A stretch of 24,000 nucleotides of DNA from an uncultured bacterium (GCA_903850545.1 CAINLW010000037.1:14813-38812), one strand, 5' to 3'; counted from the stretch's first letter, positions 4,785 to 22,734 are shown. Notes: generated by a model from the letters alone, not told the origin. Made by a program: numbers and translations.

Positions 4785-5071
4785 CCGGATTCGAACCGGT
4801 GACCTCTCCCGTGCATATTCCCCAATATTTTCATATCGGCATGGACTATATCTTCGCCATTGTTCGTCCGTTAAGACGAATTTAGGTGCTCCGGTATCTA
4901 GTCTCTACGGCGCCCCCTTAAAATAAATTAAGAGGTTCCCTCGGTATTCGCATATCTTTATAAAAAAGACTTAGCCTTCACCGATATCCCAGAGAGTTTC
5001 AAACTACCTTTCGGCAGCAAGCTGCACGTTCGTCTACAGGGGAGCGCTCTAACCAGCTGAGCTACAACCGC
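4776..5071 (-). tRNA. tRNA-Asp (anticodon GUC) interrupted by a group I intron in the anticodon loop
   Basis: 5' exon 5071->5036 reads GCGGTTG TA GCTC AGCTGGTTA GAGC G CTCCC CTGT. 3' exon 4813->4776 reads CAC GGGAG AGGTC ACCGG TTCGAAT CCGGC CAGCCGC G. Joined, they give a 74-nt cloverleaf with loop CUGUCAC, a 5-nt variable loop and G73. CCA is not encoded. Confidence 0.88.
4814..5035 (-). ncRNA. Group I intron (tRNA-type, IC3-like), 222 nt, no ORF
   Basis: The 5' exon ends in U and the intron ends in G (AATATG). The minus strand contains GTAGAGACTAGA...CACCTAA, matching the J6/7-P7-P3 core I remember from the Azoarcus tRNA-Ile intron. P7 is GACTA/TAGTC, P3 is GGTG/CACC and P8 is TTCGTC-ttaacg-GACGAA. 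GAAA tetraloop hairpins are GCC-GAAA-GGT and CCGATAT-GAAA-ATATTGG. Confidence 0.85.
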
Positions 5072-5739
5072 AATTTTATAAATTTCTCAAAAACATCCTT
5101 CTTTCTTTTGAGAAACAAACCTCCTGATTTAAGGTTATCTACATTATACATAAAATTATATAATTTCAAAGAGCTAATTACACTATATGTTAATCTGAAG
5201 TAATCACCCTGTCCTTTTCGAATAGAACCTTTCATTCCTTTTATTCTTTCTAATCTGTCATTTAAAGCTTCTAAAAAAACAAAGGAACAAGATGTAAAAA
5301 CGCACGAAATGGTATAAGATTTAATTAATCTATTTTTATGGTTAAGACCGACCCAAACATTCCCATCACCATCAAAATACCCGCGAACAAAATCAGAAAA
5401 ATACTTTTCCGGTATATTTGGAACTGCTAAACTTTTTGTTTTATTCTTATCGAAACCGAGTTTTCTCAAATCATCACACATTTCAAAGCTCCCTATCTGT
5501 AAACGATAAAGATTTTTATTATTACCCATACCAATTTTTTCACCTATTTTATGTTCAGATTCAATGCAATCTTTAATTTTACAAAGTATCTCCTTGTCAG
5601 TAATTTCTATGCACCAAAAATTTGCACCTCGTTTGTTTAATGTAATATAACCGTCAGCAGCAAAAAAACCCAAGATATAAGCCATTTGTGTCGTCCATTT
5701 TTTGAAAAAATCTTTATTTATTTTTTTAAATATCGGCAA
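5062..5739 (-). CDS. Double-motif LAGLIDADG homing endonuclease, free-standing between two tRNA genes (start uncertain)
   Basis: Two LAGLIDADG motifs (YILGFFAADGYI and FVRGYFDGDGNV). The ORF-track start (5871) lies inside the upstream tRNA, so it is not credible. Candidate starts are TTG at 5739 or ATG at 5685. The stop TAG (5062-5064) is positions 8-10 of tRNA-Asp. Confidence 0.85.
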   Translation of the reverse strand: MPIFKKINKDFFKKWTTQMAYILGFFAADGYITLNKRGANFWCIEITDKEILCKIKDCIESEHKIGEKIGMGNNKNLYRLQIGSFEMCDDLRKLGFDKNKTKSLAVPNIPEKYFSDFVRGYFDGDGNVWVGLNHKNRLIKSYTISCVFTSCSFVFLEALNDRLERIKGMKGSIRKGQGDYFRLTYSVISSLKLYNFMYNVDNLKSGGLFLKRKKDVFEKFIKLRL

Positions 5740-5814
5740 GATTATATTGTAGCACGTGACAGTGTTATATACTAACCAAAATATATAAAAATTTAGATGA
5801 AAAACAAATTTTTG

Positions 5815-5885
5815 TGTCGATGAATGGAATCGGACCATTGTCTGAGGCTTATGAGTCCCCCGTTCTACCATTGAACTACACCGAC
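5815..5885 (-). tRNA. tRNA with CAU anticodon (elongator Met or Ile2), 71 nt
   Basis: GTCGGTG TA GTTC AATGGTA GAAC G GGGGA CTCATAA GCCTC AGAC AATGG TCCGATT CCATT CATCGAC A. The acceptor has one G-U pair. Positions 31-39 are an A/G mismatch. The T loop TCCGATT is non-canonical. Confidence 0.7.
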
Positions 5886-6067: not shown

Positions 6068-6141
6068 TGGTTGCGGGGGCCCGAATTGCACGGACGTCTC
6101 TAGGTTATGAGCCTAGCGAATTACTGCTACTCTACCCCGCT
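6068..6141 (-). tRNA. Initiator-type tRNA-fMet (CAU), CCA encoded
   Basis: AGCGGGG TA GAGT AGCAGTA ATTC G CTAGG CTCATAA CCTAG AGAC GTCCG TGCAATT CGGGC CCCCGCA A CCA. The acceptor GCGGGG/CCCCGCAACCA with a mismatched 1:72 pair mirrors E. coli tRNA-fMet. G30-C40 and G31-C39 are present. The D loop lacks GG and the T loop is TGCAATT. Confidence 0.75.
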
Positions 6142-8738: not shown

Positions 8739-8800
8739 AAAATAAATATAACATTTTAGAGAATAAAAGAAAACGGCATTAAAATTTTTTTATAAAATTT

Positions 8801-8833
8801 AGAAAACAAAAAGGGTCGCGTTTCCGTGACCCT
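8801..8833 (-). terminator. Intrinsic terminator closing the hammerhead operon
   Basis: The minus strand reads AGGGTCACGGAAACGCGACCCT followed by TTTTTGTTTTCT. It is preceded by a second hairpin CCTGT-tataaggaag-ACAGG (8836-8854), just past the stop of the 8868..9371 gene. Confidence 0.75.
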
Positions 8834-8867
8834 ACCTGTCTTCCTTATAACAGGATTTTGTTTAAAC

Positions 8868-9371
8868 TTACATCGCGATTGGTTTCGCGGTGTAGCTGGG
8901 AGCAAGACCAGCCGACCCCACTTCGCTCAGACCCGCCTCGGTGATTTCATATGCACCCTGACACTTATTAAGCTGGTCTAGATCCGAAAAAACAACTCTT
9001 AACTTCTTGATGTCTTCCCTGAAATGAGCCTGGTCGGGACGCTGTCTGACTGGTTTGCCCGGAGAACAACAACCTCTACTTTCGCGACCAATCATCTTGC
9101 CGGCTCGCATCTCGATAAGATCGAGGTGTTTCACCAAGCCGTCTTTTGCCATTTTGGGAAGTGCTGCCCGGACTCTCTGTTCCAGTTCAGACGCAATCCT
9201 CTGAGGTGTAATTCTCCCTTTATCAAACCCGTACCTTTCACACTCCCTCAGCATGAGGCCTTTGATCATCTTAATCGCCTCTTTCGACTGAGCTATTATG
9301 TTAGCAACTACCGGAACCAAAACCGGCCTTCCGGGATACTCAGCCAACGCCTTCAATATTAATTTTCTCAT
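8868..9371 (-). CDS. Hypothetical protein (167 aa), last cassette of the hammerhead operon
   Basis: The start is reassigned to ATG at 9371 (MRKLILKALAEYPG...), 8 nt after GAGAGGGAG. The longer ORF-track version (to 9470) reads through the hammerhead and leader. G+C is much higher than in flanking genes. A possible winged-helix-like segment (LPKMAKDGLVKHL) is only a guess. Confidence 0.7.
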   Translation of the reverse strand: MRKLILKALAEYPGRPVLVPVVANIIAQSKEAIKMIKGLMLRECERYGFDKGRITPQRIASELEQRVRAALPKMAKDGLVKHLDLIEMRAGKMIGRESRGCCSPGKPVRQRPDQAHFREDIKKLRVVFSDLDQLNKCQGAYEITEAGLSEVGSAGLAPSYTAKPIAM

Positions 9372-9446
9372 ATGTTTTCTCCCTCTCAACCTGTTCTTGC
9401 AAATCAGGAATATTTTACGAGAAGCAAATAAATCAAAGAACATTTT
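9372..9446 (-). promoter_or_regulatory. Conserved post-ribozyme leader module, copy A
   Basis: Minus strand: AAAAATGTTCTTTGATTTATTTGCTTCTCGTAAAATATTCCTGATTTGCAAGAACAGGTTGAGAGGGAGAAAACAT. It shares ATGTTCTTTGA, CGTAAA and TCCTGAYTYGMAAGARCAGGT with copies B-E. GTTCTT can pair with AAGAAC. Confidence 0.6.
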
Positions 9447-9496
9447 TCTGTTTCGTCCTTTTGGACTCATCAGTCGAAACTACACTTCGAGACAGA
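9447..9496 (-). ncRNA. Hammerhead ribozyme, type III (HH-A)
   Basis: Minus strand: TCTGTC|TCGAA-GTGTAGT-TTCGA CTGATGA GTCC-AAAA-GGAC GAA ACAGA. All core nucleotides are present (CUGAUGA, GAA, A15.1, GUC site). Predicted cleavage is between 9491 and 9490. A 5-bp hairpin GGGAA/TTCCC (9497-9517) abuts it upstream. Confidence 0.85.
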
Positions 9497-9530
9497 GGGA
9501 ATTTTATGAGATTTCCCAAACTCTTTACTA

Positions 9531-9908
9531 TCACTTTACCCACGGACACTTAACCAGCGAAGTCTTCGACGTTGACCAATAAGGCTTCGGTGCCTCCATC
9601 AATCCTAGCTTTACAAAACGCCGGTGAAGATCATCCATCAAAGACATTAGGTGTCCCCTGACAACTGTTCCATTCGTCTTGTACTCTCGCGCTATATTCA
9701 CTATTGTCATAGGGGTGGGATTGTCCCCAAAAGACTTGTAGGCTAAGTGAAATTTCAACAACTTTGCATACAACCCGTAGCCAAACTTGGTGCTTCCAGG
9801 AAGTCTTTTACCTTTTTTCTCTAAGGCACAATACTCCATATATATTACAAGCACAGCTTCCTTAACATCGGCGGAATTTACCACTTCGAACATGTTAATG
9901 TTGCTCAT
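9531..9908 (-). CDS. Hypothetical protein (125 aa), possible HTH
   Basis: The ATG at 9908 is preceded by AAGGGAAG. The segment MTIVNIAREYKTNGTVVRGHL looks helix-turn-helix-like (a guess). It lies between HH-B and HH-A. Confidence 0.65.
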   Translation of the reverse strand: MSNINMFEVVNSADVKEAVLVIYMEYCALEKKGKRLPGSTKFGYGLYAKLLKFHLAYKSFGDNPTPMTIVNIAREYKTNGTVVRGHLMSLMDDLHRRFVKLGLMEAPKPYWSTSKTSLVKCPWVK

Positions 9909-9979
9909 ATAATATCTTCCCTTTTTCTCACCTGCTCTTTCAAGTCAGGAATTATGAGAATTAAAATCAAAGAACATTT
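9909..9979 (-). promoter_or_regulatory. Conserved post-ribozyme leader module, copy B
   Basis: Minus strand: AAAAATGTTCTTTGATTTTAATTCTCATAATTCCTGACTTGAAAGAGCAGGTGAGAAAAAGGGAAGATATTAT. Confidence 0.6.
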
Positions 9980-10031
9980 TTCTGTTTCGTCCTTTTGGAC
10001 TCGTCAGTCGGAAACATATTCCGAGACAGAA
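9980..10031 (-). ncRNA. Hammerhead ribozyme, type III (HH-B)
   Basis: Minus strand: TTCTGTC|TCGGA-ATATGTT-TCCGA CTGACGA GTCC-AAAA-GGAC GAA ACAGAA. Stem I shows a compensatory change relative to HH-A. Predicted cleavage is between 10025 and 10024. The upstream hairpin is AGAGAA/TTCTCT (10031-10051). Confidence 0.85.
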
Positions 10032-10187
10032 GAGAAATTTACGTATTCTCTGTTCGCTTATGCGACGGTGAGTTTCAAACTCACAATCTAGGATTAACCT
10101 TCATCCTTGATTAGTAAGGTGTGTTAAAATTCATCTTTATAACAAGTCTTAACACAAAAAACCCCATTTTCTTAACTAGACAAACTC

Positions 10188-10607
10188 CTAGGTGATTATT
10201 TTGACCTCTCCCCTTTTGTGATCAAAAATCCCCACGGTGCCATTTTTGAAATTGACACCAGTCAAATGCTCCAACACCGGCTGATGAGAAACAACAATTA
10301 TTGAGACGCTGCATCTTTCTATCTCTCTCATTGTCTCCCAATGGTCTGAATTATCACAATCAAGATGATCGCGTGTTTCAAGAGACACTTTGCACTTTTT
10401 GTCTGACTTGATTAACACCTTTTTAATAATATCAGCTGTTTCCACCGCCCTCTGAAGAGGAGAGGTTATAATAAGTACAGTCCCTTTTATTATTTTGGCG
10501 ATATGCTCACCAGCCATTGTCGCCTGTGCCTTTCCATTATCATTCAGACCATTACCACGATCTTCACCGTGGCGAACAAGAAATACCTGCTTCAATACTT
10601 TAAGCAT
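10188..10607 (-). CDS. Histidine phosphatase superfamily protein, SixA-like (139 aa)
   Basis: The start is reassigned to ATG at 10607 after AGAGGGA. It carries the VFLVRHGE (RHG catalytic motif), SPLQRAVETA and VVSHQP motifs in the order and spacing of SixA-type phosphohistidine phosphatases. Confidence 0.75.
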   Translation of the reverse strand: MLKVLKQVFLVRHGEDRGNGLNDNGKAQATMAGEHIAKIIKGTVLIITSPLQRAVETADIIKKVLIKSDKKCKVSLETRDHLDCDNSDHWETMREIERCSVSIIVVSHQPVLEHLTGVNFKNGTVGIFDHKRGEVKIIT

Positions 10608-10674
10608 AAAGTTTCCCTCTTTCTTCAACCTGTTCTTTCGAATCAGGATTTACAAAGACCAAAATTTTAAAGAA
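10608..10674 (-). promoter_or_regulatory. Conserved post-ribozyme leader module, copy C
   Basis: Minus strand: ATGTTCTTTAAAATTTTGGTCTTTGTAAATCCTGATTCGAAAGAACAGGTTGAAGAAAGAGGGAAACTTT. Confidence 0.6.
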
Positions 10675-10725
10675 CATCTCTGTTTCGCTCTTTTGAGCTC
10701 GTCAGTCGAAGCTACACTTCGAGAC
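10675..10725 (-). ncRNA. Hammerhead ribozyme, type III (HH-C)
   Basis: Minus strand: ACTGTC|TCGAA-GTGTAGC-TTCGA CTGACGA GCTC-AAAA-GAGC GAA ACAGAG. Stem II covaries (GCTC/GAGC versus GTCC/GGAC). Predicted cleavage is between 10720 and 10719. The upstream hairpin is GGGAAT/ATTCCC (10726-10747). Confidence 0.85.
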
Positions 10726-10789
10726 AGTGGGAATTTTTATAGAGATTCCCGGAACTCTTTAGGATTTTTTGTTTTTACGCGGTAATCCA

Positions 10790-11093
10790 AACCGCATCAG
10801 ATACAGGTTCTATTAGGATAGGAGCAGTTTTGTTCGCTCACCTATACGCTTTAGTTTCCTTTACCTGCAAAATATAGTGTGATGGTCAGCTATGCCAAGT
10901 TTCTGACCCTGGAGTTTAACCGACAACTGTTCCTTGCTCTGCAGAGCTAAGGATGGCGCATTCGGCACAAGACTTCTATAGAGTCCTATGCGCACCAGTC
11001 ATCGGCCTCCCTTCATCTAACTCCCTCCATCCGAGGCCAGTTTGATGTTTGCACTTTTTAAAGTGCTGGTGCTTTAGAGATCACACGTCCCTG
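10790..11093 (-). ncRNA. Candidate structured non-coding RNA cassette between HH-D and HH-C
   Basis: No ORF of 60 aa or more exists on either strand across 10786-11048, and the minus-strand frame that I translated by hand carries 8 stops in about 105 codons. G+C is comparable to the neighbouring coding cassettes. There are many local hairpins: GGTGC..GCACC, GCACTT-taaa-AAGTGC, GGCCTC..GAGGCC, GCGCAT..ATGCGC enclosing AGGACT/AGTCTT, CCTTaGCTC-tgca-GAGCaAGG, GGTCAG..CTGACC and GCGGT..ACCGC. Confidence 0.35.
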
Positions 11094-11096
11094 CAC

Positions 11097-11171
11097 CATT
11101 TTCTTCAACCTGCTCTCTCAAGTCAGGATTTTTTACGAAGAAAATTATTAGAATTTATTCAAAGATCATTT
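11097..11171 (-). promoter_or_regulatory. Conserved post-ribozyme leader module, copy D (no strong SD, followed only by a 13-codon ORF)
   Basis: Minus strand: AAAATGATCTTTGAATAAATTCTAATAATTTTCTTCGTAAAAAATCCTGACTTGAGAGAGCAGGTTGAAGAAGAAA, followed by ATGGTGCAGGGACGTGTGATCTCTAAAGCACCAGCACTTTAA. Confidence 0.5.
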
Positions 11172-11234
11172 TCTAGTTTCGTCTTGCCACCTTGTGATGG
11201 AAGACTCATCAGTCCGACTCAGTCGGAGACTAAA
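11172..11234 (-). ncRNA. Hammerhead ribozyme, type III, extended stem II (HH-D)
   Basis: Minus strand: TTTAGTC|TCCGA-CTGAG-TCGGA CTGATGA GTCTT-CCATCACAAGGTGGC-AAGAC GAA ACTAGA. Stems I, II and III all differ in sequence from HH-A/B/C but keep their pairing. Predicted cleavage is between 11228 and 11227. The upstream hairpin is CGAGGAT/ATCCTCG (11235-11255). Confidence 0.8.
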
Positions 11235-11240
11235 CGAGGA

Positions 11241-11303
11241 TTAATTAGATCCTCGGGCGCTGTAGGGTTGTCCCCGACAGCGTACTTGGTTGTACATTGT
11301 CAT
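11241..11303 (-). CDS. Micro-ORF, 20 aa: MTMYNQVRCRGQPYSARGSN
   Basis: The ATG at 11303 lies 7 nt after GGAG. It is a paralog of the 18-aa ORF upstream. Of 8 substitutions across the first 13 codons, 5 are synonymous third-position changes. Confidence 0.6.
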   Translation of the reverse strand: MTMYNQVRCRGQPYSARGSN

Positions 11304-11362
11304 ACTATCTCCATTCTCTACCTGTTCTTTCGAATCAGGGTTTACGAGAGTTCAAAGAACGT
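11304..11362 (-). promoter_or_regulatory. Leader module, copy E (the only copy without a hammerhead in front)
   Basis: Minus strand: GACGTTCTTTGAACTCTCGTAAACCCTGATTCGAAAGAACAGGTAGAGAATGGAGATAGT. Its GTTCTTTGA box supplies the stop codon of the upstream micro-ORF. Confidence 0.55.
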
Positions 11363-11408
11363 CGTCGCCAGGTTGCCCCCGGCAACGCACTTCGTCGTAC
11401 ATTGCCAT
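11352..11408 (-). CDS. Micro-ORF, 18 aa: MAMYDEVRCRGQPGDDVL
   Basis: The ATG at 11408 lies 4 nt after AAAGGAGG, the best SD in the window. It is the first reading frame of the island operon and is paralogous to 11241..11303. Confidence 0.6.
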   Translation of the reverse strand: MAMYDEVRCRGQPGDDVL

Positions 11409-11510
11409 AAGGCCTCCTTTTCTATCTGATAACAGAATATCATTAATTGCAATAATGTGTTGTAAAATATGACTATTTGTAAAAGATAATTAAGAAAACG
11501 CAAAATAGGC

Positions 11511-11540
11511 TTGACAAATATAGTATAAAAAGTGTAAAAT
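11511..11540 (+). promoter_or_regulatory. Sigma-70-type promoter for the TrmB-like regulator gene
   Basis: TTGACA (11511-11516), an 18-nt spacer, then TAAAAT (11535-11540). It is 12 nt upstream of the ATG at 11553. Confidence 0.55.
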
Positions 11541-11552
11541 AAATTTACACTT

Positions 11553-12266
11553 ATGGAATATTCAAATGCATTACAACGTTTAGGACTATCGCTTAAAGAG
11601 TCCCAAATATACGAGACCTTATTAGATAAAGGTTCTTTAAGCATGATAAAACTATCCCAGATAACTGGAATTAACAGACCTGCACTTTATATTTTAATTC
11701 CGAAAATGATAAATAAAGGGTTAGTTATTGAGACAAAAAAAGGTAAGAGGATTGAGTATATTGCTTCCTCCCCTAATAAACTTGAGCCCTTAGTCAAAAA
11801 CGCCCAACAAAGTCTTGAAAATATAGTCACCAATTTAAATACTGAATTTTCTAAAAAACAGCTTGTTCCAAAAATTGAAACTTACTATGGTAAAGATGGA
11901 ATAATTAAGGTGCTTATGGATATTGTCACAACTCTAAATAAAGGGGATACATATTATCGTTACAGTATTAAAAAAATATCTGACAAATTTCCTTTGCCAA
12001 AAGAATATTATAGATTAAGAGATGAAAAACAAATTGAACGTTTAGTTATAGCTAGCTCCGAAGTAGCAAAAAGAAAAAAACCAGACTTAAATGAAACAAT
12101 TAAAATATTAAAAGGTAGCTATGATGGTTTTAATGCGACAAAAAACATTTATGGAAATAAAATTGCCTTTACAGATTATGAAAATGAGGTAGCTTTTATA
12201 ATCTACAACGAAAAAATGGCTAAACTAGAAAAAGAAATCTTTCTGAATTTGTACAAAACACTCTAA
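11553..12266 (+). CDS. TrmB-family-like transcriptional regulator (N-terminal winged HTH)
   Basis: LQRLGLSLKESQIYETLLDKGSLSMIKLSQITGINRPALYILIPKMINKGLV matches the TrmB-type HTH pattern. It is the only credible plus-strand gene in the window. Confidence 0.7.
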   Translation: MEYSNALQRLGLSLKESQIYETLLDKGSLSMIKLSQITGINRPALYILIPKMINKGLVIETKKGKRIEYIASSPNKLEPLVKNAQQSLENIVTNLNTEFSKKQLVPKIETYYGKDGIIKVLMDIVTTLNKGDTYYRYSIKKISDKFPLPKEYYRLRDEKQIERLVIASSEVAKRKKPDLNETIKILKGSYDGFNATKNIYGNKIAFTDYENEVAFIIYNEKMAKLEKEIFLNLYKTL

Positions 12267-21969: not shown

Positions 21970-22060
21970 AATTTTAATAAATATATTAATAAATAAACTA
22001 ATTAACATTATACATCACATCTATAAAAAGAAAAACCTGCTTTCGCAGGTTTTTCTTAAG
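21967..22060 (-). repeat. Pilin intergenic module, copy 1 (terminator of upstream pilin plus putative promoter)
   Basis: About 93 nt with, by eye, 3 mismatches to 22594-22687. It contains the terminator aaaaacctgc-tttc-gcaggttttt (22031-22054) and a minus-strand TATAAT (22007-22012). Confidence 0.7.
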
Positions 22061-22092
22061 ATTTAGACAAAAAAATGACTTTGTTCGATAAA

Positions 22093-22596: not shown

Positions 22597-22687
22597 AATT
22601 TTTATAAATATATTAATAAATAAACTAATTTACATTATACATCACATTTATAAAAAGAAAAACCTGCTTTCGCAGGTTTTTCTTAAA
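22594..22687 (-). repeat. Pilin intergenic module, copy 2
   Basis: Near-identical to 21967-22060. The terminator hairpin is at about 22658-22681. Confidence 0.7.
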
Positions 22688-22734
22688 CTATCACTGAGGT
22701 CAAACCTCATAAAGTTAATTTGATGTAACTTTTA

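Follow-up and report, generated by a model that had tools for sequence, protein, structure and literature searches.

Four predicted type III hammerhead ribozymes within one putative transcription unit of an uncultured bacterium

What would four hammerhead motifs do when they follow one another in a single bacterial transcription unit? We addressed this question in a 24,000-nt stretch of DNA from an uncultured bacterium (GCA_903850545.1, CAINLW010000037.1:14813-38812), here called the window, with coordinates counted from its first letter. Its minus strand contains four type III hammerheads, HH-A to HH-D, in one orientation and within 1.8 kb. A preliminary description of this DNA had already reported them, and every sequence written in it is an exact substring of the window. 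The motifs lie in a 2.7-kb island (8800-11450) between gatC and the divergent gene of a TrmB-like regulator, where one minus-strand transcription unit of ~2.6 kb, from roughly 11440 to 8801, is predicted. We consider it likely that this single transcript would be cut by the ribozymes into insulated cistrons. The evidence comes from the motifs themselves, from their relatives in phages, and from a larger module that surrounds each ribozyme.

Hammerhead motifs and their phage relatives

The catalytic core CUGAYGA ... GAA-A and the GUC cleavage triplet were intact in the four copies. Each has C3-U4-G5-A6-N7-G8-A9, G12-A13-A14, A15.1-U16.1 and a non-G at position 17, in agreement with the core positions listed before. 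Stem III is open and stems I and II are closed by loops in all copies, and both the sequence and the alignment to RF00008 (Hammerhead_3) confirmed the type III topology assigned earlier. The pattern CTGAYGAG-N(4-30)-CGAAAC occurred four times, against no occurrence in 100 dinucleotide-preserving shuffles. In an Rfam search with permissive filters over 3.1 kb, RF00008 matched each copy across model positions 1-54 with E-values from 7.6e-9 to 6.7e-6, which correspond to 5.9e-8 to 5.2e-5 for the whole window; loop 2 (AAAA) is shorter than that of the model. No other ribozyme family in Rfam was matched anywhere in the window. Another ribozyme class or a known noncoding RNA in the island was rejected, since the permissive scan gave only noise apart from the hammerheads.

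Stems I, II and III are fully paired in each copy, and the differences among these paralogous copies, which are 73-80% identical, include compensatory ones; the helices thus vary yet keep their pairing, as had been observed. Stem I occurs as UCGAA/UUCGA, UCGGA/UCCGA or UCCGA/UCGGA, and stem II as GUCC/GGAC, GCUC/GAGC or GUCUU/AAGAC. Two details of the stems given previously required changes: stem III of HH-C has 4 bp (CUGU/ACAG), and stem II of HH-D extends beyond GUCUU/AAGAC into a 10-bp helix with one bulge.

The cleavage sites predicted earlier for HH-A, HH-B and HH-D were reproduced, whereas HH-C spans 10730->10677 and not 10725->10675. Its C17 is at 10723, and hence the predicted cleavage is at 10723/10722, 3 nt from the 10720/10719 proposed before. 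Therefore, the internal units measured from C17 to C17 are 505 nt (HH-D/HH-C), 698 nt (HH-C/HH-B) and 534 nt (HH-B/HH-A); the first two replace the earlier values of 508 and 695 nt, and the third is unchanged. Each ribozyme is followed by its own Shine-Dalgarno (SD) sequence and open reading frame (ORF). Collectively, the Rfam matches, the shuffle controls, the pairing and the covariation within the hammerhead family, described below, ruled out chance or artefact, and the four motifs are genuine-looking type III hammerhead ribozymes for which self-cleavage is predicted.

The exact core joined to stem II GUCC-AAAA-GGAC was found in 45 IMG/VR contigs (L045-L089). Nearly all of these phage copies are type III, with a hairpin abutting the 5' side of stem III, then a short leader and a start codon. 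Three window copies and 32 phage hammerheads sharing this stem II were aligned, with HH-D excluded, and the alignment was the basis of a covariance model, R1. In these 35 sequences, 98.3% of the cells were paired and 152 were compensatory, with 11 of the 15 pairs changed on both sides. The observed pairing, number of compensatory cells and covariation score were reached by none of 500 shuffles, and slid controls gave 32-47%; because the search pattern prescribed stem II, this stem is uninformative in the phage copies. HH-D, absent from the training set, was scored by R1 at 38.4 bits (E 1.5e-7).

When applied to the phage contigs, R1 revealed in many of them several hammerheads on one strand, separated by gene-sized intervals: L050 has five, L077 and L061 have four each, and L087, L084, L060, L048, L051 and L073 have three each. 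On sequence grounds, this places the window array within a common phage-type arrangement. The window and phage copies have the core and stem II in common and are both of type III topology, and their loop 1 is related (RUGWGUR-like); further likenesses are the 5'-side hairpin, a short leader with a start codon, and three to five same-strand copies per contig. The phage copies differ in having a 6-bp G+C-rich stem I, short A-rich leaders and unrelated cargo. In L050, L077 and L061, the 4-5 same-strand hammerheads stand within 2-4.5 kb, and ORFs of roughly 60-350 amino acids (aa) lie between the ribozymes of L077 and L061.

The preliminary description had taken a regular array of ribozyme-delimited genes to be unknown, and this claim fails: besides being common in phages, tandem arrays were described in 2011, in a study that found hammerheads on either side of single genes within polycistronic RNAs and demonstrated their cleavage (PMC3088659). 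Perreault et al. worked on prophage transcripts of Clostridium scindens, Azorhizobium caulinodans and Agrobacterium tumefaciens, obtained the expected cleavage products from three tandem arrangements in vitro and one in vivo, and proposed processing to operon-length or single-gene-length mRNAs (PMC3088659). A 2019 review repeated the idea of polycistronic processing and regarded the biology of bacterial ribozymes as largely elusive (PMC6765202). The locus resembles those arrays in its several same-orientation hammerheads at gene-sized spacing in a polycistronic unit with varying single genes. Unlike them, it is chromosomal, has no recognisable prophage genes, keeps the same neighbour genes in a related genome, includes one delimited unit that is noncoding, and places each ribozyme inside a longer conserved module. 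Our literature search found no relevant paper linking hammerheads with Patescibacteria.

The repeated module and its recurrence in another organism

The hammerheads are arranged as the preliminary description claimed, but it missed the larger conserved module around each of them. Alignment of the four intergenic regions gave a constant order: a 3' hairpin, the hammerhead, a block GUUCUUUGA, a stem-loop with a bulged A and a GNRA loop, and the SD. The hairpin abuts the 5' side of stem III of every ribozyme, and its stems covary among the copies. The GUUCUUUGA block is conserved after stem III. The stem-loop, found in the 5' untranslated region (UTR) and directly 5' of the SD, has an outer helix that pairs a pyrimidine tract with a purine tract, an A-rich internal loop (GUAAA...) and an inner hairpin CCUG-A-YUY-GNRA-GAR-CAGG. 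There are five copies of this inner-hairpin pattern in the window, against 0 expected. The fifth, UTR-0, precedes the second leader ORF and has GUUCUUUGA, the outer helix, the hairpin CCUG-A-UUC-GAAA-GAA-CAGG and an SD, with no hammerhead upstream. Pairing reaches 100% in the inner helix, which includes one compensatory pair, and 77% in the outer helix, which includes three covarying pairs; slid controls fall to ~50%. As there are only five paralogous copies, this covariation is suggestive and not conclusive.

A covariance model, R2, was built solely from the five window copies of the UTR stem-loop. It found none beside the phage hammerheads, which is a further difference between the phage subfamily and the locus. 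It did detect a copy (45.6 bits, E 7e-7) in L043, an unrelated 818-bp metagenomic contig, and nothing further in about 470 kb of other loci. L043 encodes P0022, a protein 26% identical to the 167-aa protein of the island, and parts of the hairpin-hammerhead-UTR module lie on both sides of its gene. Upstream, the 3' half of a hammerhead is followed by GUUCUUUGA and the UTR stem-loop, whose inner helix is CCUCC/GGUGG and in which the bulged A, the GAAA loop and the CCUG/CAGG base are kept. Downstream, a GGGAGAU/AUCUCCC hairpin is followed by another incomplete hammerhead, of which the 5' part is present; its stem I reads UCAAA/UUUGA. The contig (1-818) starts and ends within hammerhead cores (GACTGATGAGTCCAAAAGGAC ... 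GACTGAAGAGTCCAAAAGGAC). Repeated modules may break assemblies, so that arrays would be under-represented in metagenomic contigs.

Several other proposals for the module were rejected. The exact UTR pattern as a widespread element gave scattered single matches in 21 GTDB genomes and 2 IMG/VR contigs, attributed to chance; a hammerhead-linked UTR pattern gave eight Joint Genome Institute (JGI) metagenome loci, none with a hammerhead by Rfam and also treated as chance; and two further module patterns in IMG/VR gave chance matches only. Alternative pairing of GUUCUUUGA with the 3' half of the hairpin was unsupported, as L043 keeps GUUCUUUGA though its inner helix is changed. The start codons and lengths of a mini-ORF (MFF...) in GUUCUUUGA were inconsistent across the copies.

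Closer relatives are few, because the family of the 167-aa protein is very rare: a word-indexed search gave four clusters, and HMMER gave five matches among 1.84 billion representatives. Contigs L025-L032, at 99.9-100% identity to the window, belong to the same strain and, being near-identical, are uninformative for covariation. Relatives carrying P0016, P0018 and P0019 were compared through gene tables. One of them has, in order, a 188-aa gene, a TrmB-like gene, a 928-bp gap, a 74-aa ORF, a 110-aa homologue of the 125-aa protein, a 166-aa homologue of the 167-aa protein and an 83-aa gene. Its island therefore adjoins the same TrmB-like and ~188/189-aa genes and retains a large noncoding gap, but not the phosphatase gene.

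Proposed processing and competing explanations

In the reading we favour, the single transcript would self-cleave during or just after transcription, 3' of each GUC, at four sites. Five pieces would result: the leader, a 505-nt largely noncoding structured RNA, a 698-nt mRNA for the SixA-like protein, a 534-nt mRNA for the 125-aa protein and a ~680-nt mRNA for the 167-aa protein. Each downstream piece would carry a 5'-OH, the compact fold of the cleaved ribozyme, GUUCUUUGA, the UTR stem-loop and the SD, and each upstream piece would end in the hairpin, 5-7 nt and a 2',3'-cyclic phosphate. Every cistron would then be insulated by identical nuclease-resistant ends and the same translation-initiation context, and we propose that its stability and translation would thereby become independent of the neighbouring sequence. 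Cutting into gene-sized units, as first suggested in the preliminary description, remains the best reading of the locus, the cleavage itself being a prediction.

By analogy, the module is likely a natural counterpart of the RiboJ design. RiboJ combines the satellite tobacco ringspot virus (sTRSV) hammerhead with a 23-nt hairpin before the ribosome-binding site (RBS). According to a published suggestion, this hairpin, which remains at the 5' terminus, stabilises the RNA and makes its RBS accessible (PMC6206723). Both share the order type III hammerhead, hairpin and RBS, which is a similarity of working and not family membership. Unlike RiboJ, which is engineered, single-copy and placed after a promoter, the module is natural and repeated between cistrons, and it adds a hairpin at the 3' side of the upstream fragment.

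Several observations weigh against the proposed processing. RF00008, the model named in the preliminary description as a check, matched the copies at full length with E <=6.7e-6, together with the consensus core and all three helices, but every score (37.9-48.3 bits; Table 1) lies under the 48.5-bit gathering score. The default Rfam scan of the window reports two tRNAs and no hammerhead because the scores are narrowly under this cut-off. Stem III of HH-C has only 4 bp, stem III of HH-D contains a U-G pair and its stem II is atypically long; therefore, activity may be unequal among the copies. The promoter is a weak consensus match (9/12), and the covariation of the flanking elements is based on only 5-6 paralogous copies. 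Cleavage at the locus is read from the motifs, apparent conservation of the array in the closest relatives was judged from gene spacing only, and the insulating and stabilising roles suggested for the flanking hairpins and the UTR element are drawn by analogy.

The UTR stem-loop could instead be an operator for an RNA-binding protein, perhaps one of the operon ORFans, which would co-regulate translation of the cistrons while the hammerheads only give uniform 5' ends; expression would then be regulated and processing not simply constitutive. This recalls the operators of the MS2 and PP7 coat proteins, which have a bulged A two to three pairs below the tetraloop and lie next to a start site; the UTR stem-loop has a similar shape. 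The element stands in five copies before five start sites, is far better conserved than the cargo and is recognisable in L043 despite the 26% identity there, and the ORFan proteins of 125 and 167 aa are both small, basic and helical. However, domain and PDB sequence searches detected no RNA-binding domain in either of them, their AlphaFold2 (AF2) models being of low confidence. Moreover, the element leaves the SD uncovered, lying upstream of it, and distant homologues of the 167-aa protein occur with neither the element nor a hammerhead. We thus judge an operator unlikely.

We give even less credit to a formation of circles, in which the reverse reaction of the ribozyme or an RtcB-type ligase would join the unit ends into circular mRNAs or a circular noncoding RNA. 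Such joining of hammerhead-cut ends occurs in viroids and retrozymes, and the locus shares with viroid, satellite and retrozyme hammerheads the type III topology and the same-polarity repeats that could in principle release unit-length RNA. The neighbouring hammerheads have one orientation. HH-A, HH-B and HH-C could exchange their stem III strands, which share a CUGU/ACAG core, so a hybrid hammerhead could form from the two ends of a C-B or B-A unit. The stem III strands of HH-D and HH-C are incompatible, so the unit with the highly structured noncoding cassette would not rebuild a ribozyme. In viroid, satellite and retrozyme systems, circular noncoding RNAs arise from rolling-circle or long terminal repeat (LTR)-flanked repeats, unlike the units of the locus, which carry SD-led ORFs and are flanked by non-identical ribozymes. 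The layout of 3' hairpin and 5' UTR with SD suits linear mRNAs, and the window contains no RtcB gene. The possibility of circles was raised for tandem bacterial hammerheads by Perreault et al., who sought circular or spliced products in tandem arrangements and detected none (PMC3088659).

The island is part of a cellular chromosome. The window carries gatA, gatC, an NAD-dependent ligase-sized ORF (ligA), a P-type ATPase-like ORF, glycosyltransferases, a prepilin peptidase-like ORF, many type IV pilin-like genes and two tRNA-Met genes, and this gene content, with roughly 30% GC, suggests a Patescibacteria-like host. No prophage context was found, as the window has no phage structural or integration gene. 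The island cargo gave no meaningful PHROG match, and GenBank phages matched neither the island nor HH-A (blastn of each) nor the cargo proteins. The one hint of foreign origin is base composition: GC is 0.38-0.49 in the island and 0.26-0.34 in the flanking genes, a difference consistent with either horizontal origin or abundant structured RNA. It is very improbable that the island is an integrated phage or mobile-element fragment whose hammerheads are relics with no present role: this would fit the deviating GC, the hammerhead subfamily typical of phage contigs and the ORFan cargo, but not the lack of phage genes and matches, the four intact cores, the pairing kept by compensatory changes among copies only 73-80% identical, the same TrmB-like and ~188/189-aa neighbours in a relative with 74% identity in the terminal protein, or the recurrence of the module in the distant lineage of L043.

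If its transcript is processed into insulated cistrons as proposed, the locus illustrates polycistronic processing in a compact and natural form, with four intact ribozymes in 1.8 kb. Cutting, protection of both ends and presentation of the RBS would be readable from one sequence. The arrangement is extended from prophages to an apparently stable chromosomal operon of a Patescibacteria-like organism, and the locus suggests that ribozymes can release a noncoding RNA besides mRNAs. No new class of system is established, as ribozyme-flanked gene arrays are already described; what may be new is the non-prophage context, the lineage-specific 5'-UTR element and the ribozyme-bracketed noncoding cassette of ~440 nt. 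A bolder proposal, which we hold to be doubtful, is that the module is a portable boundary of expression cassettes that a lineage of ultra-small bacteria gains, loses and swaps, with the ~440-nt RNA as a new class that owes its mature ends to two ribozymes and the stem-loop as an operator through which one factor would control every cassette. In its favour, the gene table of the close relative has no SixA-like gene in the array, and the module, far more conserved than its cargo, flanks the divergent gene of L043. These are hints that cassette content varies between relatives.

Cassettes, transcription signals and neighbouring genes

The positions of all features are given in Table 1.

Table 1. 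Features of the island and its divergent neighbour, ordered along the minus strand
Feature	Position	Strand	Basis and remarks
TrmB-like helix-turn-helix regulator	11553-12266	+	PF01978 2.4e-10; divergent neighbour
Promoter-like site TTTACA-16-AATGAT	11439-11466	-	Consensus scan; putative function
Leader repeat 1, SD and 18-codon ORF (MAMYDEVRCRGQPGDDVL)	11352-11408	-	Sequence
UTR-0, fifth copy	11303-11363	-	Pattern; R2 67.7 bits
Leader repeat 2, 20-codon ORF (MTMYNQVRCRGQPYSARGSN)	11241-11303	-	Sequence; paralogous to repeat 1
3' hairpin CGAGGAU/AUCCUCG	11235-11255	-	Abuts HH-D
HH-D	11171-11235	-	RF00008 37.9 bits, E 6.7e-6; C17 at 11228, predicted cleavage 11228/11227
UTR-D	11091-11151	-	Pattern and R2; only a 13-codon ORF (MVQGRVISKAPAL) after it
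Noncoding cassette core	10751-11090	-	All frames closed
3' hairpin GGGAAU/AUUCCC	10729-10750	-	Abuts HH-C
HH-C	10677-10730	-	RF00008 38.0 bits, E 6e-6; C17 at 10723, predicted cleavage 10723/10722
UTR-C	10611-10671	-	Pattern, pairing and R2
Histidine-phosphatase (SixA-like) gene, 139 aa	10188-10607	-	Pfam His_Phos_1 1e-9
3' hairpin AGAGAA/UUCUCU	10031-10051	-	Abuts HH-B
HH-B	9979-10032	-	RF00008 48.3 bits, E 7.6e-9; C17 at 10025, predicted cleavage 10025/10024
UTR-B	9913-9973	-	Pattern, pairing and R2
ORFan gene, 125 aa	9531-9908	-	Mostly helical; one homologue, P0019, 76% identity
3' hairpin GGGAA/UUCCC	9497-9517	-	Abuts HH-A
HH-A	9445-9498	-	RF00008 46.5 bits, E 2.3e-8; C17 at 9491, predicted cleavage 9491/9490
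UTR-A	9372-9432	-	Pattern, pairing and R2
Rare-family gene, 167 aa	8868-9371	-	Start MRKLIL
Post-stop hairpin CCUGU/ACAGG, then intrinsic terminator GGGUCACG-GAAA-CGCGACCC and U run	8801-8854	-	Sequence

The unit between HH-D and HH-C contains the UTR element and an SD, followed merely by the 13-codon ORF, and a hidden gene in its cassette was rejected because all six frames are closed. On the transcribed strand, segment 10731-11171 has a minimum free energy of -134.1 kcal/mol and a fold z of -5.39 against shuffles; the opposite strand gave a fold z of -1.99, and the coding segments 8900-9340 and 10188-10607 gave 0.03 and -2.76, respectively. No Rfam family matched the cassette, and it is probably a structured RNA of ~440 nt that HH-D and HH-C would release. 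The 928-bp gap in the relative's contig is of similar size and occupies the equivalent place. A GCGAACA block is common to the end of the cassette and the 3' UTR of the SixA-like gene (10033-10187, minus strand). This 155-nt 3' UTR also has the hairpins GUGUUAA/UUAACAC, GGAU/AUCC, GUGAGU/ACUCAC and UCGC/GCGA.

The strong hairpin of leader repeat 1 (11387->11363), after which the sequence is rich in U, was flagged as terminator-like. The leader repeats may encode leader peptides, form an attenuator or represent an RNA motif. In the mini-ORFs MAMYDEVRCRGQPGDDVL and MTMYNQVRCRGQPYSARGSN, five of the first 13 codons show synonymous differences only; several of these substitutions also compensate one another in the stem of a hairpin whose GGGGRCAACCYU loop is conserved.

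Among the cargo, the label 'SixA-like' given in the preliminary description was supported by the His_Phos_1 match and by TIGR00249 (sixA, 2.4e-10, under the model's cut-off). Apart from the protein itself, no homologue was found below 1e-8. A 200-aa ORF with the N-terminus MSPKGRNRK does read through HH-A, as noted before and confirmed from the ORF track. It is a miscall: the homologues P0016-18, 59-74% identical to the 167-aa protein, all begin at MRKLIL, so the true start of the 167-aa gene is at 9371. Neither the 125-aa nor the 167-aa protein had a match in Pfam, PHROG, NCBIfam or PADLOC or a sequence match in PDB, and both are absent from IMG/VR and GenBank phages. A defence system was rejected, with no PADLOC support. 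The AF2 models are poor, with predicted local distance difference test (pLDDT) values of 51.1 and 52.8 for the 125-aa and 167-aa proteins, respectively.

P0020-23 are distant homologues of the 167-aa protein. In the loci L041, L042 and L044, the genes of three distant homologues stand alone, and no hammerhead or UTR element was found. A convergent gene for an RRM_1 RNA-binding protein lies near the homologue in two of these three hammerhead-less loci, adjacent in L044 (919-1185) and one gene away in L042 (11100-11366).

The minus-strand promoter faces a stronger plus-strand promoter (11511-11540) of the TrmB-like gene, whose product is a possible regulator of the ribozyme unit. At the other end, the terminator itself runs 8832->8801, and both it and the post-stop hairpin are conserved in L001 with their pairing retained.

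Elsewhere in the window, weak matches to the Rfam family 'BSnc120' between pilin genes (22009-22092 and 22597-22734) were rejected as a noncoding RNA; they correspond to an ordinary intrinsic terminator (AAAAACCUGCGAAAGCAGGUUUUU) repeated after successive pilin genes. A 269-aa LAGLIDADG ORF (5062-5885, minus strand) overlaps the tRNA-Met gene at 5814-5885, and its real start is therefore probably further downstream. The second tRNA-Met (CAT), at 6068-6141, has a mismatched first acceptor pair.

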